From contig CBDHHL010000033.1 of assembly GCA_965263355.1 (NCBI GenBank), forward strand, positions 10,680 through 74,679: a DNA stretch of 64,000 bases. The letters are read 5' to 3'. The translations under genes were made by a program, and so were the position numbers. How positions within the stretch are numbered: the first letter of the stretch is position 1; the number at the start of each line of letters is the position of its first letter. This DNA is from Leptolyngbyaceae cyanobacterium. GTDB taxonomy: Bacteria > Cyanobacteriota > Cyanobacteriia > Phormidesmidales > Phormidesmidaceae. The notes below the pieces were generated by a model. It had not been told where the DNA came from and searched no databases. It worked only from the letters and a program-made list of their open reading frames with translations. Below, in pieces: positions 3,548-62,815 of this stretch.

Positions 3548-3934
3548 ATGGCCACTCGCGCTGAACTACTGCAAGAATTATTCAACAAATACAGTAGCCG
3601 CACGTCTAAGAATATGACGGCATACAATCGAAGTGGCGGGAACGTTCGGAGGCCAGTCAGGTCGTCAAAGCCCAAAAGCGACCAAGCCGCATACGATCAA
3701 GCTAAATTCAACACCCGTAAAGCCAATCAAGTCTTAAGTCAGAGGCAACCGTTAACCCGCAAAGGTGGCAAGTACGACGGCTTGCCTACGCCTGCTGTAT
3801 TGCAATTTGCACGTTGGGGGGTTCCTTTGTCGTCAATAGCAAACCCAACTTACGAGAAAATCAGAGCGATTCGAGATCGCTACCAATCAAGGAAAGATGT
3901 GTTAGCCAAAAAGCTGGGTAAGTCTAATGAATAA
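3548..3934 (+). CDS. Basic hypothetical protein
   Basis: K/R-rich 128 aa ORF overlapping the next gene. Confidence 0.65.
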   Translation: MATRAELLQELFNKYSSRTSKNMTAYNRSGGNVRRPVRSSKPKSDQAAYDQAKFNTRKANQVLSQRQPLTRKGGKYDGLPTPAVLQFARWGVPLSSIANPTYEKIRAIRDRYQSRKDVLAKKLGKSNE

Positions 3935-4139
3935 ACCAATCTCTTACAACGGCGTCAATATTCCCTCTAAATACGTATCCGGACTGTCCGGGTCCACCCG
4001 TCGCAAGCGGCTAGCTGCGATTGCTAAAGCTCGCAAGTCAGGCGAACCGATGCCTCGGACACTCCCTGGGGACGACAAAACAAAAACTAGGAGAAGCCGA
4101 TTTACTCGCAAATTCAATAAACGCTATGGCAACTCGTAG
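3927..4139 (+). CDS. Basic protein, resembles N-terminal half of DUF5824-like viral proteins
   Basis: IPSKYVSGLS...KTRRSRFTRKFNKRYG. Family match is from memory. Confidence 0.55.
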   Translation: MNKPISYNGVNIPSKYVSGLSGSTRRKRLAAIAKARKSGEPMPRTLPGDDKTKTRRSRFTRKFNKRYGNS

Positions 4140-4389
4140 ACAGAGACTATCGGCACGGCTCCAAAAGGCCATCAAAAATAAAGCAGAGAAGTCCAATGCA
4201 CCTGTATCAGCGCTGCGACAGATCGCGCTAAAAGGGTTAGGGGCTGCGGCTAGCTCTGGTAGACGACCTGGGGTTTCGCCAGAGCAATGGGCGTTAGCCA
4301 GAATTAACAGCGTGATCACTGGCGGAAAGGCAAGAAAGGTTGACTCAAAACAATGGAAGGCTATTCAAGAATTCCGCAAAAACAGATAA
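4126..4389 (+). CDS. Basic protein, DUF5824-like C-terminal half
   Basis: ATG 4126; motif GRRPGVSPEQWALARINS. Family match is from memory. Confidence 0.6.
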   Translation: MATRRQRLSARLQKAIKNKAEKSNAPVSALRQIALKGLGAAASSGRRPGVSPEQWALARINSVITGGKARKVDSKQWKAIQEFRKNR

Positions 4390-4445: not shown

Positions 4446-5264
4446 ATGACAGACGGCACTCAAGACCCAAATGCAGAGCAGCAGACTAGTGTAACTCTGG
4501 AGCAGCTACAGCAAGTGCTTGGAGGATTCAAAGACGAGATCTCTAAAATGGTCACAGGTGCTGTCCAGAAGTCACATAAGTCTTTAGAAGGAAAGTTAAA
4601 CGATACTGTCAAGGCTCAGCTAACGTCAGTACTAGACGAGGTTATCCCATCCGAGGGAGACGGACAACAGCAGCAGGCCGCGCAGCCCCCAACAACTGGG
4701 GAAGTCGAACAGCAGCCCCAGTCGGGCGACGATATTACGGCACGTCTACAGGCTATGCTTCAGGCCCAAACGCAGCAGATGGAGCAAAAGCTAAGCGAGA
4801 CCACAAGGCAATACGAAGAGCGCATTGAGGCGATGCAAAAGGCTGTCGAGGAAGAACGGCTTAATACTGCAAAGTCTCAAGCCCGCACCGCAGCATTAGA
4901 CCCCATAAGAGATAGGCTGCACAACCCAGATTTAGCCTGGGCTTATCTTGAAAGCAAAGGAGTCTCTTACGATCCTGAGAAGGGCGGTTATGGTGTCGCG
5001 GGAAAAGACGAATTTCAAAACCCTACATTCACTCCTTTGTCAGAGCAGTTATCTAGTCTAGAGAAAGAAGCGGGCTACTTATTTAAGCCTCGACCTGGCA
5101 CTGGCACTGGGACTCAGCCAGGGACACAGCAACCGGCTTCGTCTGGGGGATCAGGCATTTATGCAGATGGCATGGACGCTCAAGCCAGGATAGATGCGCT
5201 TAAGAAGTCGGCGGACCCATTCGCTGCGATCGCCGAAAATGTGGCCAAAGCGAATGCTCAGTAG
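4446..5264 (+). CDS. Capsid scaffolding protein
   Basis: Q/E-rich coiled coil with YLFKP...GTGT tail, directly upstream of the capsid gene. Confidence 0.75.
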   Translation: MTDGTQDPNAEQQTSVTLEQLQQVLGGFKDEISKMVTGAVQKSHKSLEGKLNDTVKAQLTSVLDEVIPSEGDGQQQQAAQPPTTGEVEQQPQSGDDITARLQAMLQAQTQQMEQKLSETTRQYEERIEAMQKAVEEERLNTAKSQARTAALDPIRDRLHNPDLAWAYLESKGVSYDPEKGGYGVAGKDEFQNPTFTPLSEQLSSLEKEAGYLFKPRPGTGTGTQPGTQQPASSGGSGIYADGMDAQARIDALKKSADPFAAIAENVAKANAQ

Positions 5265-5299
5265 CACAAAACTAAGGCGTTTGTTATATTGTTCTTGAA

Positions 5300-5425
5300 A
5301 TGGCATGGCAAGGGCCGTAAACCTTGGAAAGGCATGGCAGACGCCTTAAGTCTGGGGTTCGGTCCCTGAGAATTTGAATTTAGCTCTAGGGATGCGGAAG
5401 GAAATCAACAATCCTTCTTTTTCCG
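5300..5425 (+). ncRNA. Structured 5' leader of the capsid gene: two tandem H-type pseudoknots plus two hairpins
   Basis: ATGGC-ATGG-CAAGG-GCCGT-AAA-CCTTG and AAGGC-ATGG-CAGAC-GCCTT-AA-GTCTG, then TCCCTGAG/CTCTAGGGA and GAAGGA/TCCTTC hairpins. Confidence 0.7.
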
Positions 5426-6772
5426 ATGGTTACTTTCAACAATGCAGAGCAGTCAACAGTCGTCAAGGCGTTGGCTGATGGTTCACTTTTTCAATTGTAT
5501 CGGTCTTCGGCTTTCGCTACAGCAGCAACTACAACGCTTGGTGGCCGTGACCTAAACACTTATTTCGAAAAGGGTCAGTCGGTTAGCCTGTTGATGGCTA
5601 AAGACTATGGCGAGGCGCAAGATTATGACCCTCGCACAAACACTGACGCGACTACCAACGACACTGATTATCTCCCTGTTACTCTAACGCTAGAGAAACT
5701 TTTCACTTCTGGTTTTCGCGTTTATGGAAGCGATACCCAGGTGGAACGCTACGTTAGGGATTATTCACTTTCTACTGGTGGCGCAGTTCGTAAGTCGTTC
5801 GATAATTATCTGTACAATACCGGGTTCCGTACATGGACATTGGCAGCTAGTGGGGACATCACTCTAGGCGGCCACCCTCCTACAACAGTGGCGTTCACTG
5901 AGACCAGCGGGGGCGTCCTGGCTGAATACGGTGATGCTCTTCACCGTGCTGGTGGCGCTGCACTCAACGAAGTGGATGTGCCTGAGTCTGGCCGTTACGC
6001 AAGATTGTCGCCTCGTGCTGCTGAGTCTTTGATGGGCGCAATCACTCCTGTCACTGGCAGCGCTTTAACTGAAGGCAATATTGCGCTTGGTCAACAACTG
6101 CTACAAGAGCCTAGCTACATGAGCCGTGATTTCATGATGCGGCAGTTCATGACCCGTGGTTCTAATGCGATCACAGGGCAAGACGCTGTTGCGGATTTAG
6201 GCGATGGTGTCGCATTTGAGCCTATCAGCGCTGTTGCTGCTGCGACTGGTGCAGATGAGTTCATCGATGGCAATCAATCCACTGTTACCCAGGCTGGCGC
6301 TGTGCGAGTGACTGTCAACCAGACTGCGGCTCTGGCTGCTGGCGTTGCTGTTGGCGCGATTGGTCGGATTGGCCCCAATGGTTCTACTGCAGCTGACGTA
6401 AATTATGGCGTGATTCTTCGTGTTGATAGCGCTAATAAGTACGTTTGGATGATCCCTTACAACAGCAAGGGCCAAAAAGTTGCTGCCGCTGAAGTGAACA
6501 CAGCCTACAACTTCTCTGTCCCTGCGATTGGCGCGGTGAATGTCGGCTATCACATTGAACATCTGGCGTTTGCTACGCGACTGCTTACTGAACCTACTCC
6601 TGGCTCTGGTGCGATTGTCGAGCGTTCTACCGACCAAGACACAGGTTTGGTGATGCAGGTTTTCAAAGGCTCATATAATGTCCATCAATTCAAGGAAGGC
6701 ATTCGTACTGCCTGTTTATGCGGCGCTACTCCTACCGATTTTCGGAAAGGCGTTTTGTTGCTATCAGCCTAA
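5426..6772 (+). CDS. Major capsid protein (HK97 fold, P22 gp5-like) with internal insertion
   Basis: 448 aa after the scaffold. KGQSVSL, LTLEK, HLAFATRLL and C-terminal LCGA..FRKGVLL patterns. Confidence 0.8.
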   Translation: MVTFNNAEQSTVVKALADGSLFQLYRSSAFATAATTTLGGRDLNTYFEKGQSVSLLMAKDYGEAQDYDPRTNTDATTNDTDYLPVTLTLEKLFTSGFRVYGSDTQVERYVRDYSLSTGGAVRKSFDNYLYNTGFRTWTLAASGDITLGGHPPTTVAFTETSGGVLAEYGDALHRAGGAALNEVDVPESGRYARLSPRAAESLMGAITPVTGSALTEGNIALGQQLLQEPSYMSRDFMMRQFMTRGSNAITGQDAVADLGDGVAFEPISAVAAATGADEFIDGNQSTVTQAGAVRVTVNQTAALAAGVAVGAIGRIGPNGSTAADVNYGVILRVDSANKYVWMIPYNSKGQKVAAAEVNTAYNFSVPAIGAVNVGYHIEHLAFATRLLTEPTPGSGAIVERSTDQDTGLVMQVFKGSYNVHQFKEGIRTACLCGATPTDFRKGVLLLSA

Positions 6773-6784
6773 TTAATCTCTCCT

Positions 6785-7153
6785 ATGGCGATTATTTTGT
6801 TCCGGGGCAATATGCCCACTCTTTTTCATAGCAAAGGGGACGCTAGCGCAGCTCTCGCAGGTGGGCTGTATCGCCGACAGCCTGTGAAGGTGGCGGATGA
6901 ACCCACCACTGAAGTCCAAGCCGACAACGACGAGGTCGCCGAAAGAGCTGCAGCGGAACCTCCTCAGCCTGATTCAATTAATGTCAACTCAGCGCCTCTG
7001 GCTGAGTTGACTAGCATCAAAGGGATTGGTTTGGCAAAAGGAAAAGAGTTGATCGAAAAACGGCCCTATTCGGCAGCTGAGGATCTTGTTGCAGTTACCG
7101 AAGCTGTCGATTGGGTCCAGCTTGAAGAATCTGGCGTTATTTGGTTTGGTTGA
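6785..7153 (+). CDS. Helix-hairpin-helix (ComEA-like) DNA-binding protein
   Basis: INVNSAPLAELTSIKGIGLAKGKELIEKRPY. Confidence 0.8.
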   Translation: MAIILFRGNMPTLFHSKGDASAALAGGLYRRQPVKVADEPTTEVQADNDEVAERAAAEPPQPDSINVNSAPLAELTSIKGIGLAKGKELIEKRPYSAAEDLVAVTEAVDWVQLEESGVIWFG

Positions 7154-14580: not shown

Positions 14581-15669
14581 ATGATGCATAGAATCCCAGA
14601 GCTACTTAAGCGGAACAGCCTGATAGGGGCTGCTATTGTTGGGCCAGACGGAAAGTTCTGGGATGTAAATGAGACTCTATGCGAATTATTGGGCTATCAA
14701 CAAGAAACGTTGCTGCGCCTAACGTTTCAGCAGATCAGCCATCCTGAAGATCTAACGCCTCAGGTCAACCCATTCCGCAGCGTAATCAATGGAGAACTTA
14801 AATCTTTCACGCTGAAAAAGCGCTACAAGCATGGGCAGACAGCAGGATGGATTTCTTGCACGTTGCACTGTGAAGGATTCCATTCTGAGTCTGGTGAATT
14901 TCTTTATTTCTTTTCCCAAGTCAGCAAACTGGGCGACAAAGAGCTGACAGAGGTTGAAACACAAAGGCTTTCAGAAATAAAATACGCAATCAACAACAAC
15001 GGATTTGCCCTGCATTATCAGCCGATAGTTGACCTGAAAACCGATGAGACCGTTGGTTATGAGGCGTTGTCACGATGGGCAAAAGACAATGAATTAATCT
15101 TCCCAGGGGATTTCTTGCCTTTACTGAGAAAGGCAAACAGTGAACACTTACTGTGCTACTGGGTGATCGAGCGGACCCAGGCAGATTCAATCAAGATTGG
15201 CCAGTGGATCAGCTTTAATATCTCACCATTCACTCTAGCTAGAGCAGATTGGCACGATCAAAAGCTGCCTGCTAGAGGGCATATGGAGATATTGGAGACT
15301 GAGGCTGTTTCTGAGGAGATTCAGAGCCGGATTCAGTCAGCTAGGGGGAAAGGCGTAAAGATCGCCCTGGACGACTTTGGGACCGGATACTGCAGCTACG
15401 ATAGATTGCTGAAAGGCCAAGTTGACCTAGTAAAGCTCGACAGATCTATTATTAGTGGCCTGCCTGCTCGCGAATCCAGAGTAATGGTTGACGCAATTGT
15501 GGCGCTATCGCAAAAACTCAGCATCAAAGTTATCGCTGAAGGCGTGGAAACCCAGCAACAGGCCGACATGTTGAAAGCAATCGGCTGTGACATGGCGCAG
15601 GGCTATTTGTTCGGTCGGCCTGCGCCACTACCCGCGATCACTCGCTCTTCGTCGGGGGCCATTCACTAG
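14581..15669 (+). CDS. PAS-EAL c-di-GMP phosphodiesterase
   Basis: N-terminal PAS (VNETLCELLGY..HPED). EAL motifs YQPIVDL, GYEALSR, SFNIS, ALDDFGTGY, VKLDRS, AEGVET, QGYLF. No GGDEF. Confidence 0.92.
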   Translation: MMHRIPELLKRNSLIGAAIVGPDGKFWDVNETLCELLGYQQETLLRLTFQQISHPEDLTPQVNPFRSVINGELKSFTLKKRYKHGQTAGWISCTLHCEGFHSESGEFLYFFSQVSKLGDKELTEVETQRLSEIKYAINNNGFALHYQPIVDLKTDETVGYEALSRWAKDNELIFPGDFLPLLRKANSEHLLCYWVIERTQADSIKIGQWISFNISPFTLARADWHDQKLPARGHMEILETEAVSEEIQSRIQSARGKGVKIALDDFGTGYCSYDRLLKGQVDLVKLDRSIISGLPARESRVMVDAIVALSQKLSIKVIAEGVETQQQADMLKAIGCDMAQGYLFGRPAPLPAITRSSSGAIH

Positions 15670-61250: not shown

Positions 61251-62375
61251 TCAAGCAGCGATAGCAGGCTGAGCCCGTCTTACATCGCCTTCCGGTGTAG
61301 CGGTCATTGCCCCGACCGCTTTAATGTTTTTGCTGGCGTTATCGTCCCGGTCGTGAATGATCAGGCACTTTGGACACTGCCATTCACGCACCTTGAGATC
61401 CAGTCTGTCGAGGACATGACCGCACTCTGAGCAGGTTTTAGAGCTGGGATGCCACTGGCCAATGTAGACCACTTGCTTACCCTTCTTAGCCGCAACACAT
61501 TCCAGAATGCCGAGAAATTCAGCAAAGGCTAAATCGCTAACCTTGCGTCCCCATAGCCGTTGCATCCCTTTGAGGTTCAACGTCTCAAAATAGAGAATAT
61601 GGAACTCATCAGTTAAGCTGTGGGCCAACTTCCAAAACCAATCTCTACGACGGTTAGCAATGGCCTCATGCTTGTGAGCAAGGTTTAACCGTGCCCGTTC
61701 CCGATTGGCCGATCCCTTTTTCTTTCGGGATAACTGGCGGGATGCCTTTTTGATCTCCTTAATAGACTGCTTAAAGAACAATGGCGACTGAATCTTGAAG
61801 CCTTCAGAGCAGGTGAGAAAGTCTTTCAGGCCAAAGTCAAAACCAGCGGTTTTACCCGTCTCGGCAGTGACCCGAACGTCTACAGAATCAACGACAACGG
61901 CAATAAATAACTCACCTAACGGTGTCCGCTTAATGGTGAGCGTCTTTACCTTGCCATCAATCTCTCTACTATTCCAGAACTGATAGACCTTATTCCCTAT
62001 CTTCAGACGATTGCCGCCAAGGAACTTATAGCCAGCTTGCTTAAGTGTGAATGATTTATACTTTTTAACCTTCTTGAATGACGGTGGCTTAACCCCCTTG
62101 TCATGGTGCTTAAAGAACAACTGATATGCCCGCTCAATCCGTTGACAGATATCCTGCACAGCTTGAGACCCCACCAACTGCCAAAACGGGTTACGCTTTC
62201 TCAGCTTGGCGATATGCTTCTGAAGCTTGGCACAGTTCAAGTGCTTGCCAAACATGCGGTAATACCGCTTATGCAAAGCAATGCAGTGGTTATAGATAAC
62301 GCCAGCAGCATTGATAGACCGCTTTAGATACCTATTCCGCTTGTGACTGTATAACTTAAACTTTAGTGTTCTCAT
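61251..62375 (-). CDS. tnpB: TnpB RNA-guided nuclease
   Basis: GFDFGL, FETLNLKGM, CSECG/CPKC and DRDDNA; RuvC triad intact. Confidence 0.95.
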   Translation of the reverse strand: MRTLKFKLYSHKRNRYLKRSINAAGVIYNHCIALHKRYYRMFGKHLNCAKLQKHIAKLRKRNPFWQLVGSQAVQDICQRIERAYQLFFKHHDKGVKPPSFKKVKKYKSFTLKQAGYKFLGGNRLKIGNKVYQFWNSREIDGKVKTLTIKRTPLGELFIAVVVDSVDVRVTAETGKTAGFDFGLKDFLTCSEGFKIQSPLFFKQSIKEIKKASRQLSRKKKGSANRERARLNLAHKHEAIANRRRDWFWKLAHSLTDEFHILYFETLNLKGMQRLWGRKVSDLAFAEFLGILECVAAKKGKQVVYIGQWHPSSKTCSECGHVLDRLDLKVREWQCPKCLIIHDRDDNASKNIKAVGAMTATPEGDVRRAQPAIAA

Positions 62376-62416
62376 ATGTCTATGGTAACATGATATAGAC
62401 ATATGGCAATAGACAA

Positions 62417-62815
62417 ATGGCGCAAAAATATCGACATGATAATACGTCGGTTTCACTCATCAACTATCACTTTGTTTGGATAGTGAGACGACGCAAAAAG
62501 ATATTGAAGGGGGATCTAGATAATCGCCTGAAAGAGCTGATACATCAGGCAGCTACAGAAATTGACTGCCAGGTGATAGCACTAGAAACCGATTTAGATC
62601 ACGTTCATCTATTTGTGAATGCTCACCCACGGTTAGCGCCCTACCAAATCATGCATAAGGTTAAGGGGTTAAGCTCCAACGTTCTGAGAAAGGAGCAATC
62701 CTGGTTAAAACAAAAACTCCCGTCACTATGGACAAGGAGCTATTTTGTGAGCACTGCGGGCAATGTCTCAGGGGATACGATTAAGCGCTATGTTGAGGAA
62801 CAGAAAACTAAATGA
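62417..62815 (+). CDS. tnpA: Y1 HUH transposase
   Basis: YHFVW, DHVHL, LWTRSYF, YVEEQ. Confidence 0.96.
   Translation: MAQKYRHDNTSVSLINYHFVWIVRRRKKILKGDLDNRLKELIHQAATEIDCQVIALETDLDHVHLFVNAHPRLAPYQIMHKVKGLSSNVLRKEQSWLKQKLPSLWTRSYFVSTAGNVSGDTIKRYVEEQKTK

Follow-up and report, generated by a model that had tools for sequence, protein, structure and literature searches.

Putative tandem RNA pseudoknots in a cyanophage coat-gene leader and a similar knot before many virion genes of related phages

Four described systems come closest to the element reported below. The gene 32 mRNA of phages T4 and T2 carries a pseudoknot operator, in T4 67 nt upstream of the start codon, a single, repressive site that binds the gene's own product (PMC3014915). 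Transcripts of the T4 genes e, soc, 49, and I-TevI differ in length, and only the longer ones include a strand that overlaps the late promoter and hides the ribosome site directly (PMC3014915). The Com protein of phage Mu binds a hairpin-loop motif at one gene, mom, and activates its translation (PMC6483171). The core of ToxI alone does not bind its toxin ToxN, single-stranded overhangs being needed (PMC8860590).

Our analysis covers a 64-kb stretch of a cyanobacterial contig of about 72 kb (the whole stretch is called the window below). Upstream of a coat gene it contains a real structured leader, in which a preliminary description had proposed two adjacent pseudoknots. A similar knot, found at a fixed distance before many virion genes of related phages, suggests an undescribed RNA signal that turns on the production of virus parts.

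The coat-gene leader and its tandem units

The leader lies between two head genes on the forward strand. The upstream gene (4446..5264) encodes a scaffolding protein (phrog_206, E 1.7e-08) and is a possible source of read-through RNA into the leader. The downstream gene (5426..6772) was correctly taken to encode the coat protein: its 448-residue product was modeled with a pLDDT of 82.7 and matches the P22 procapsid (E 3.4e-13), so that it is a major capsid protein with a P22/Sf6-like predicted fold. It is followed by a gene for a small helix-hairpin-helix protein (6785..7153, forward strand; HHH_3 E 3.3e-05, below the cut-off; ComEA-like fold, with a weak E of 0.085). In BLASTP comparisons only the coat and helix-hairpin-helix proteins have matches in all five relatives compared, the portal being matched in three and the scaffold in one. 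The helix-hairpin-helix protein is a candidate reader of the knot; it may be simply a packaging factor. A serine recombinase and homologs in cyanobacterial records point to a temperate cyanophage. An IS200/IS605 element with tnpA and a TnpB-like gene lies at 61251-62815, and two adjoining small ORFs, both matching DUF5824, lie between the head genes and the scaffold gene (3927-4389).

The two units occupy 5300..5326 and 5329..5354 of the forward strand. All four proposed helices pair exactly: 5300-04/5314-18 and 5309-13/5322-26 (stems 1 and 2 of unit 1), and 5329-33/5343-47 and 5338-42/5350-54 (stems 1 and 2 of unit 2). The units have their 5′ core in common and differ at four stem positions, each a two-sided change, so the earlier statement that their differences keep the pairing also stands. 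When eight random substitutions were placed over the 20 stem sites, all ten pairs survived in 105 of 300,000 trials. Two adjacent compact pseudoknots, with shared sequence not required, occurred three times in 200 shuffles of the window; single compact pseudoknots are at chance level (nine in the window vs a mean of 9.5 in shuffles). The pairings in the window are real and beyond chance. The 5-bp length given to stem 1 is the doubtful part: the pairs are present, but a 5-bp stem spanned by a loop of 2-3 nt is sterically doubtful in pseudoknot geometry, and a fourth pair is present in only 16 of 25 units. For these reasons, stem 1 more likely has 3-4 bp, with a loop 3 of 4-5 nt, around cores at 5302-04/5314-16 (unit 1, the more divergent) and 5331-33/5343-45 (unit 2, nearest the family consensus described below).

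A nested hairpin over 5311-5365, predicted at -25.7 kcal/mol, competes with both knots, which two crude parameter sets jointly estimate at about -11 to -24 kcal/mol; it is thus predicted to be at least as stable as both knots together. Conservation of the tandem was compared among strains, homologs at 57-90% coat identity being represented by their proteins. Among the variants listed for the strain contigs, which come from one study and two samples and have 13 variants beyond those listed, the 161-nt leader holds one site vs 39 entries (38 sites) in 790 nt of coding flank (Fisher p about 0.009 for the listed variants). The one leader variant, at position 5328, is compatible with the knots and the nested hairpin alike.

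Upstream of the units, the extended -10-like site noted earlier is indeed present (TG-n-TATATT, 5282..5290, forward strand), whereas a sigma-70 scan that requires a -35 element finds no promoter there. Transcription from this site would start near 5297 and place unit 1 at about +4 to +6 of the transcript. The preliminary description missed a further strand (5273..5287, forward strand) that overlaps the -10 site and pairs with 5334-5348 as an unbroken 15-bp helix of 12 Watson-Crick and three G-U pairs. The partner comprises loop 1, the 5′ strand of stem 2, and the 3′ strand of stem 1 of unit 2. This length of helix was reached in none of 2000 shuffles and in one of 3989 genome windows; by duplex energy alone the helix ranks only in the top 5% (433/7977). 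To judge from the position of its strands, it would form solely in read-through RNA begun upstream of the internal promoter, and would destroy unit 2.

Predicted folds place a hairpin downstream of the units at 5363..5395 (forward strand), in which CCCU (5364-67) pairs with AGGG (5388-91) and is followed by AUGC, 34 nt before the start. It resembles stem 2 and tail of the family, to which it aligns at a nonsignificant E of 1.7 in 301 nt (covariance model R2), and is a possible relic of a third unit. Pair probabilities also give an alternative long helix, 5374-5402/5410-5440 (5374..5439, forward strand; duplex -20.9 kcal/mol, p 0.01 vs shuffles), that covers the start codon region, excludes the hairpin at 5363-5392, and is predicted to be preferred over it by about 4 kcal/mol. 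A start-proximal hairpin (5396..5418, forward strand), seen in the sequence and in pair probabilities and left unscored as a terminator, holds the GAAGGA that had been placed just before the ATG. The motif lies at 5397-5402 and ends 23 nt upstream of the AUG, too far for a Shine-Dalgarno sequence, so that assignment was wrong. A terminator reading of 5396-5423 was not supported by a terminator scan. Holding the window knots changes the predicted cost of opening the start region from 8.2 to 5.6 kcal/mol, or from 11.3 to 9.2 kcal/mol with another folding window, a modest coupling to start-codon access of 2-2.6 kcal/mol. A relative at 67% identity (P0006, P0117) has a called 13-residue N-terminal extension which, by back-translation only, is compatible with 5392-5418, hinting that it keeps the 3′ part of the leader.

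A pseudoknot family in related cyanophages

The coat protein of the window found no loci in IMG/VR (one locus with an alignment query) and none in GenBank phages or 172 genomes of a further order. Patterns of the window type gave only chance matches in IMG/VR: none for the exact unit 1 pattern, 34 for the tandem pattern (none with two Watson-Crick stems 2), at least 120 for the single-unit pattern (two of those listed pair completely, the first lying within a coding frame and the second in the hairpin of a tRNA-like region), and four, none paired, for a tighter pattern. Relatives were therefore sought by protein. In coat leaders found by protein homology alone, a compact pseudoknot similar to the window units is present as a single copy in six of seven distinct leaders, those of coat proteins 33-36% identical to that of the window. 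The seventh (L003) comes from the nearest relative whose leader could be read (46% coat identity) and lacks such a knot; in this leader (3560-3758) there is a TATATT site, and an AGGA ahead of the start is buried in long stems. Conservation in homologous leaders, on which the preliminary description had staked its proposal, extends in these seven leaders to the knot but not to the tandem, only single units being found, and fails in the nearest relative. Two further loci stand outside this comparison, one as a spurious match (L005) and one without a leader (L004).

Searches with patterns and with a covariance model built from the coat-leader knots bring the family to 36 units in seven phages, with up to 12 per genome. 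Plasmid pLBA has 12 copies, G771 six, G768 five, and G553 four (a fifth matches at E 0.017); two IMG/VR contigs together have seven, and G001 and G415 have one each. Stem 2 is fully paired in 6 of 11 matches to one family pattern and 7 of 17 matches to another, and alignment A5 retains seven distinct matches from two contigs of this phage group, duplicates and 14 matches on unrelated contigs having been left out. The units almost always precede virion genes: coat, scaffold, and portal (assigned by homology to the window), tail-tube-like and tape-measure-like genes (tail tube, tape measure, and small terminase being assigned by position and resemblance only), other late genes, and a group of paralogues whose N-terminus is basic. 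Outside these phages, 251 cyanobacterial genomes yielded one match to the family pattern vs two control matches. A family match in G436 (L187 1500-1527, E 7e-08) lies 23 nt before a 177-residue gene and may be due to chance, the pattern control having given two matches; the gene is presumably of the Panacea antitoxin type. A weaker match (L210 1500-1527, E 0.0013), with three of four stem 2 pairs, precedes a tape-measure-like ORF on an unrelated IMG/VR contig.

Plasmid pLBA (NZ_AP014639.1; L168, L208, and L209), recorded from the laboratory strains Leptolyngbya boryana IAM M-101 and dg5 and counted here in IAM M-101, has genes for terminase, portal, scaffold, and coat as well as tail-like genes, most of which are annotated as hypothetical, and looks like a whole phage; G695 has the same coat leader. 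Both pLBA and G553 (L168 1585-4034, L208, L209, L193, and L195) contain several paralogues, each with a short basic N-terminal segment that may resemble a Rho N-terminal domain, and several of these genes lie behind a pseudoknot. The window encodes a PAS-EAL protein (14581-15669; EAL E 1.2e-56) and pLBA an annotated diguanylate cyclase; both phages may alter host c-di-GMP. In a Drouetiella phage (L001 406-1965) the portal gene is on the strand opposite scaffold and coat. In G768 (L171, L173, and L174) the same coat locus opens two contigs, and one copy is split in two frames, possibly an assembly artifact.

The consensus unit, of about 24 nt, opens with GG followed by one variable base; next come a 3-nt loop whose last base is G, the first strand of a stem 2 of four pairs, and one junction base; its 3′ half consists of a base and CC, a 4-8 nt loop ending in A-G-N, the partner strand of stem 2, and a tail A-N-G-Y. 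In the 36 units, many of them selected partly by pairing, 143 of 144 stem 2 pairs are Watson-Crick, with two to three pair types per position, within single genomes too. Among the 13 units chosen by protein homology or contig rather than by pairing, three of the four stem 2 pairs vary on both sides, and the covariation of stem 2 is 0.379 vs 0.158 when shuffled and at most 0.11 when slid. Stem 1 (GG/CC) is invariant, and its third pair is unpaired in 10 of these 13, usually with A opposite G; because stem 1 never varies it has no covariation support and is consistent with pairing rather than proof of it.

The end of the knot lies 23-29 nt from the start codon in 30 of the 36 units, start codons having been picked by script, and a Shine-Dalgarno-like word is found in four of the 36. 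In 17 of 26 units tested, the 3′ strand of stem 2 and the tail pair instead, beyond the level of shuffles, with bases at or just before the start, and differences in the tail are matched by changes in the start-region partner. The 12 copies in pLBA have only a weak version of this start-hiding stem, which leaves knot, tail, and spacing as the constant features. An upstream ORF was considered and rejected, the AUG in the tail varying to ACG or AAG and the frame not being kept. Sequence comparison shows that structure and spacing are conserved and that the 3′ strand often has an exclusive alternative helix over the start region.

Are the window units members of this family? They stand in the coat gene leader of the same phage clade, and both carry the family core: a GG/CC stem 1, a loop 1 ending in G, four Watson-Crick stem 2 pairs, and the loop 3 A. 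Unit 2 has the highest family-core score in the 64 kb (by our own score, which allows a 4-nt loop 1), and in 3 of 40 shuffles the best site scores at least as high; unit 1 is outside the top eight. The family covariance models, which cover only stem 2 and tail and cannot score a pseudoknot, find no match to either unit (R1 at E up to 10; R2), so the kinship rests on position, core letters, and our own score. For want of a model match, and because the window units have a 4-nt rather than a 3-nt loop 1, a Watson-Crick rather than an unpaired junction, no A-N-G-Y tail (a tail of this type follows 5391), and ends 71 and 99 nt from the start, unlike the 23-29 nt of the family, we do not file them as members. 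The window has no other copy, and G001 is likewise single-copy. The window units are probably divergent relatives of the family, although they may resemble it by convergence.

A proposed on-switch and its rivals

We hold, with confidence evenly poised, that the window units are real RNA pseudoknots, a cis-acting ON element for translation of the coat gene, and that they are a duplicated, divergent version of the late-gene knot. The earlier proposal of a cis-acting RNA controlling capsid output is supported in that related coat leaders keep a similar knot with a covarying stem 2; its autorepression operator is not, the comparison pointing to an ON element of many virion genes. A folded knot, bound by a phage protein or docked on the 30S subunit, would keep the start region open and promote initiation, and an unfolded knot would let the mRNA collapse into the start-hiding helix. 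In all six related coat leaders, opening the start region is predicted to be cheaper when the knot strands are held (e.g., 4.8 instead of 13.3 kcal/mol). In the window, the 5′ end of the transcript would gate folding: read-through RNA from the scaffold gene carries the strand that could zip up unit 2. RNA that starts at the internal promoter does not include this strand; unit 2 could fold in it, and coat would be made mainly from late-promoter RNA. Given their Watson-Crick junction pairs, the window knots may need less assistance in folding than the single units found in the relatives. Where transcription starts, how the RNA folds, which way the effect runs, and what would read the knot are inferred.

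With low but not negligible probability, the knot itself, unaided or with the help of a single small phage protein, places the cyanobacterial 30S subunit at a constant 23-29 nt from starts that lack a Shine-Dalgarno sequence. Were such a structure-based initiation signal true, the phage would switch on its whole set of virion genes at translation through one RNA fold, and the tandem in the window would be a reinforced form of the signal serving the protein made in greatest amount. The late genes of phages are usually coordinated by transcription; one fold standing before as many as 12 virion genes, and keeping a fixed distance to starts mostly without Shine-Dalgarno sequences, would be a translation-level regulon. 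To our knowledge, initiation without Shine-Dalgarno sequences in cyanobacteria is an open question, on which the knot bears, and a portable 24-nt ON element would serve cyanobacterial expression.

One unlikely alternative is a 5′-end stabiliser, in which knots at the first bases of late transcripts block entry of RNase J or RNase E and lengthen mRNA half-life. Of 23 family units, 17 are preceded at 6-15 nt by a motif, GGG-(A/C)A-N3-T (background 1.6%), which is partly an inverted repeat of the 5′ half of the unit. The motif may serve as a -10 element, as an RNA strand pairing with the 5′ half of the knot, or as both; anti-knot pairing across the family is significant in only 4 of 26. If the motif is a promoter, the knot would fall at about +1 to +10, and in the window the units follow an extended -10, where tandem copies could add protection. 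Six of the 23 units lack the motif, however, some units stand directly behind an upstream gene, and neither the 23-29 nt spacing nor the start-hiding helix would be explained; the pure nuclease block suggested earlier likewise leaves the fixed spacing to the start codon unaccounted for.

Of similarly low probability is a repressor operator like that of T4 gene 32, at which excess scaffold, coat, or another phage protein would bind the knots and block initiation. The distances are alike, 67 nt in T4 (PMC3014915) vs 71 nt in the window, and tandem sites could allow cooperative binding. Against this, the knot is predicted to open rather than close the start region in six of six related coat leaders, and the element stands before many different genes rather than one autoregulated gene.

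The third alternative, which we also consider improbable, dispenses with the pseudoknot: nested hairpins would form in the window, and the family would be a late-promoter or initially transcribed DNA element with a simple stem 2 hairpin. The invariance of stem 1, the -25.7 kcal/mol of the nested hairpin, and the partial inverted repeat formed by the upstream motif and the 5′ half of the unit all fit it. It does not readily accommodate the four two-sided changes between the window units, one of them in stem 1, or the compensated stem 2 changes within single genomes and the use of G-U pairs, or a loop 3 that varies from 4 to 8 nt yet keeps an invariant A.

Less probable again is a small-ligand riboswitch, responding for example to a cyclic dinucleotide and tying virion production to the state of the host. 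The exclusive helices could serve as an expression platform, the family junction bases are unpaired and conserved (A in 34 of 36 units and C in 34 of 36), and the window encodes the PAS-EAL protein and pLBA the annotated cyclase. EAL and cyclase genes are not common to the compared phages, however; in the window the junction is replaced by Watson-Crick pairs, and outside these phages the cyanobacterial genomes hold no more matches than the control. The leader, which the preliminary description did not recognize as a named riboswitch class, finds no family in Rfam: a search of Rfam with window 4500-6500 at E up to 10 gave one chance match outside the leader, and a search with six related loci at E up to 5 gave one chance match outside the leaders, with no riboswitch or ToxI match. 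A resemblance to the fluoride riboswitch and the HDV ribozyme was dropped, as their further helices are absent here and Rfam gave no match. The suggested tandem ligand aptamer fares poorly, with no tandem match among 34 having two Watson-Crick stems 2, single units in the relatives, and junction bases that differ between window and relatives.

Least credible by far is a ToxI-like decoy that would inhibit a type III toxin of the infected host. The two are similar in size and build, with stem 1 having two central G-C pairs, adenines in the loops, a family pyrimidine junction with G, and a tandem arrangement behind a promoter. Against it, the window units are only 2 nt apart whereas ToxN binding needs single-stranded overhangs (PMC8860590), a scan of 103 window proteins found no ToxN, and the position of the units follows that of start codons. 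A ToxN search of five host genomes gave no match even for its controls and so says nothing either way.

Comparison with described systems

No description of the element was found in the literature; PMC10690425, with over 10,000 candidate phage RNAs and supplements searched in part, might list it, and the accessible part of a bioRxiv preprint (10.64898/2026.09.22.753630) does not mention capsid or cyanobacteria. A multi-copy pseudoknot marking virion genes in a cyanophage clade is thus apparently undescribed.

ToxI of the ToxIN system shares with the units an H-type core of about 25 nt, central G-C pairs in stem 1, loop adenines, a 4-pair stem 2, and repeats after a promoter. It differs in that here the gene downstream encodes coat rather than a toxin, overhangs are lacking, the units stand in cis ahead of start codons, and the window junction is a Watson-Crick pair (C-G or G-C) instead of a U:U:G triplet. 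With T4 gene 32 the window has in common a phage mRNA leader in which an H-type pseudoknot precedes the start by about 70 nt, and a (here predicted) action on translation. Unlike that operator, this element is found ahead of numerous virion genes; its stems are shorter, and its predicted effect is to open the start region.

In Mu (PMC6483171), and as is proposed here, a start codon is held in a stem and translation is switched on via a neighboring RNA site; the difference is that here the site is a pseudoknot, repeated ahead of as many as 12 genes. Of 76 small ORFs in the window, none was flagged as a Com-like zinc-finger protein. The mom initiation region (PMC6483171) contains the same seven letters as the start-hiding strand of the family, probably by coincidence. 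As in T4 genes e, soc, 49, and I-TevI, a promoter-overlapping strand present only in longer transcripts would alter the fold of the leader, but the strand in the window would hide unit 2, so that any effect on the start would be relayed. By analogy, the element would work most like Com activation of mom in phage Mu, combined with the promoter-gated helices of the T4 late genes.
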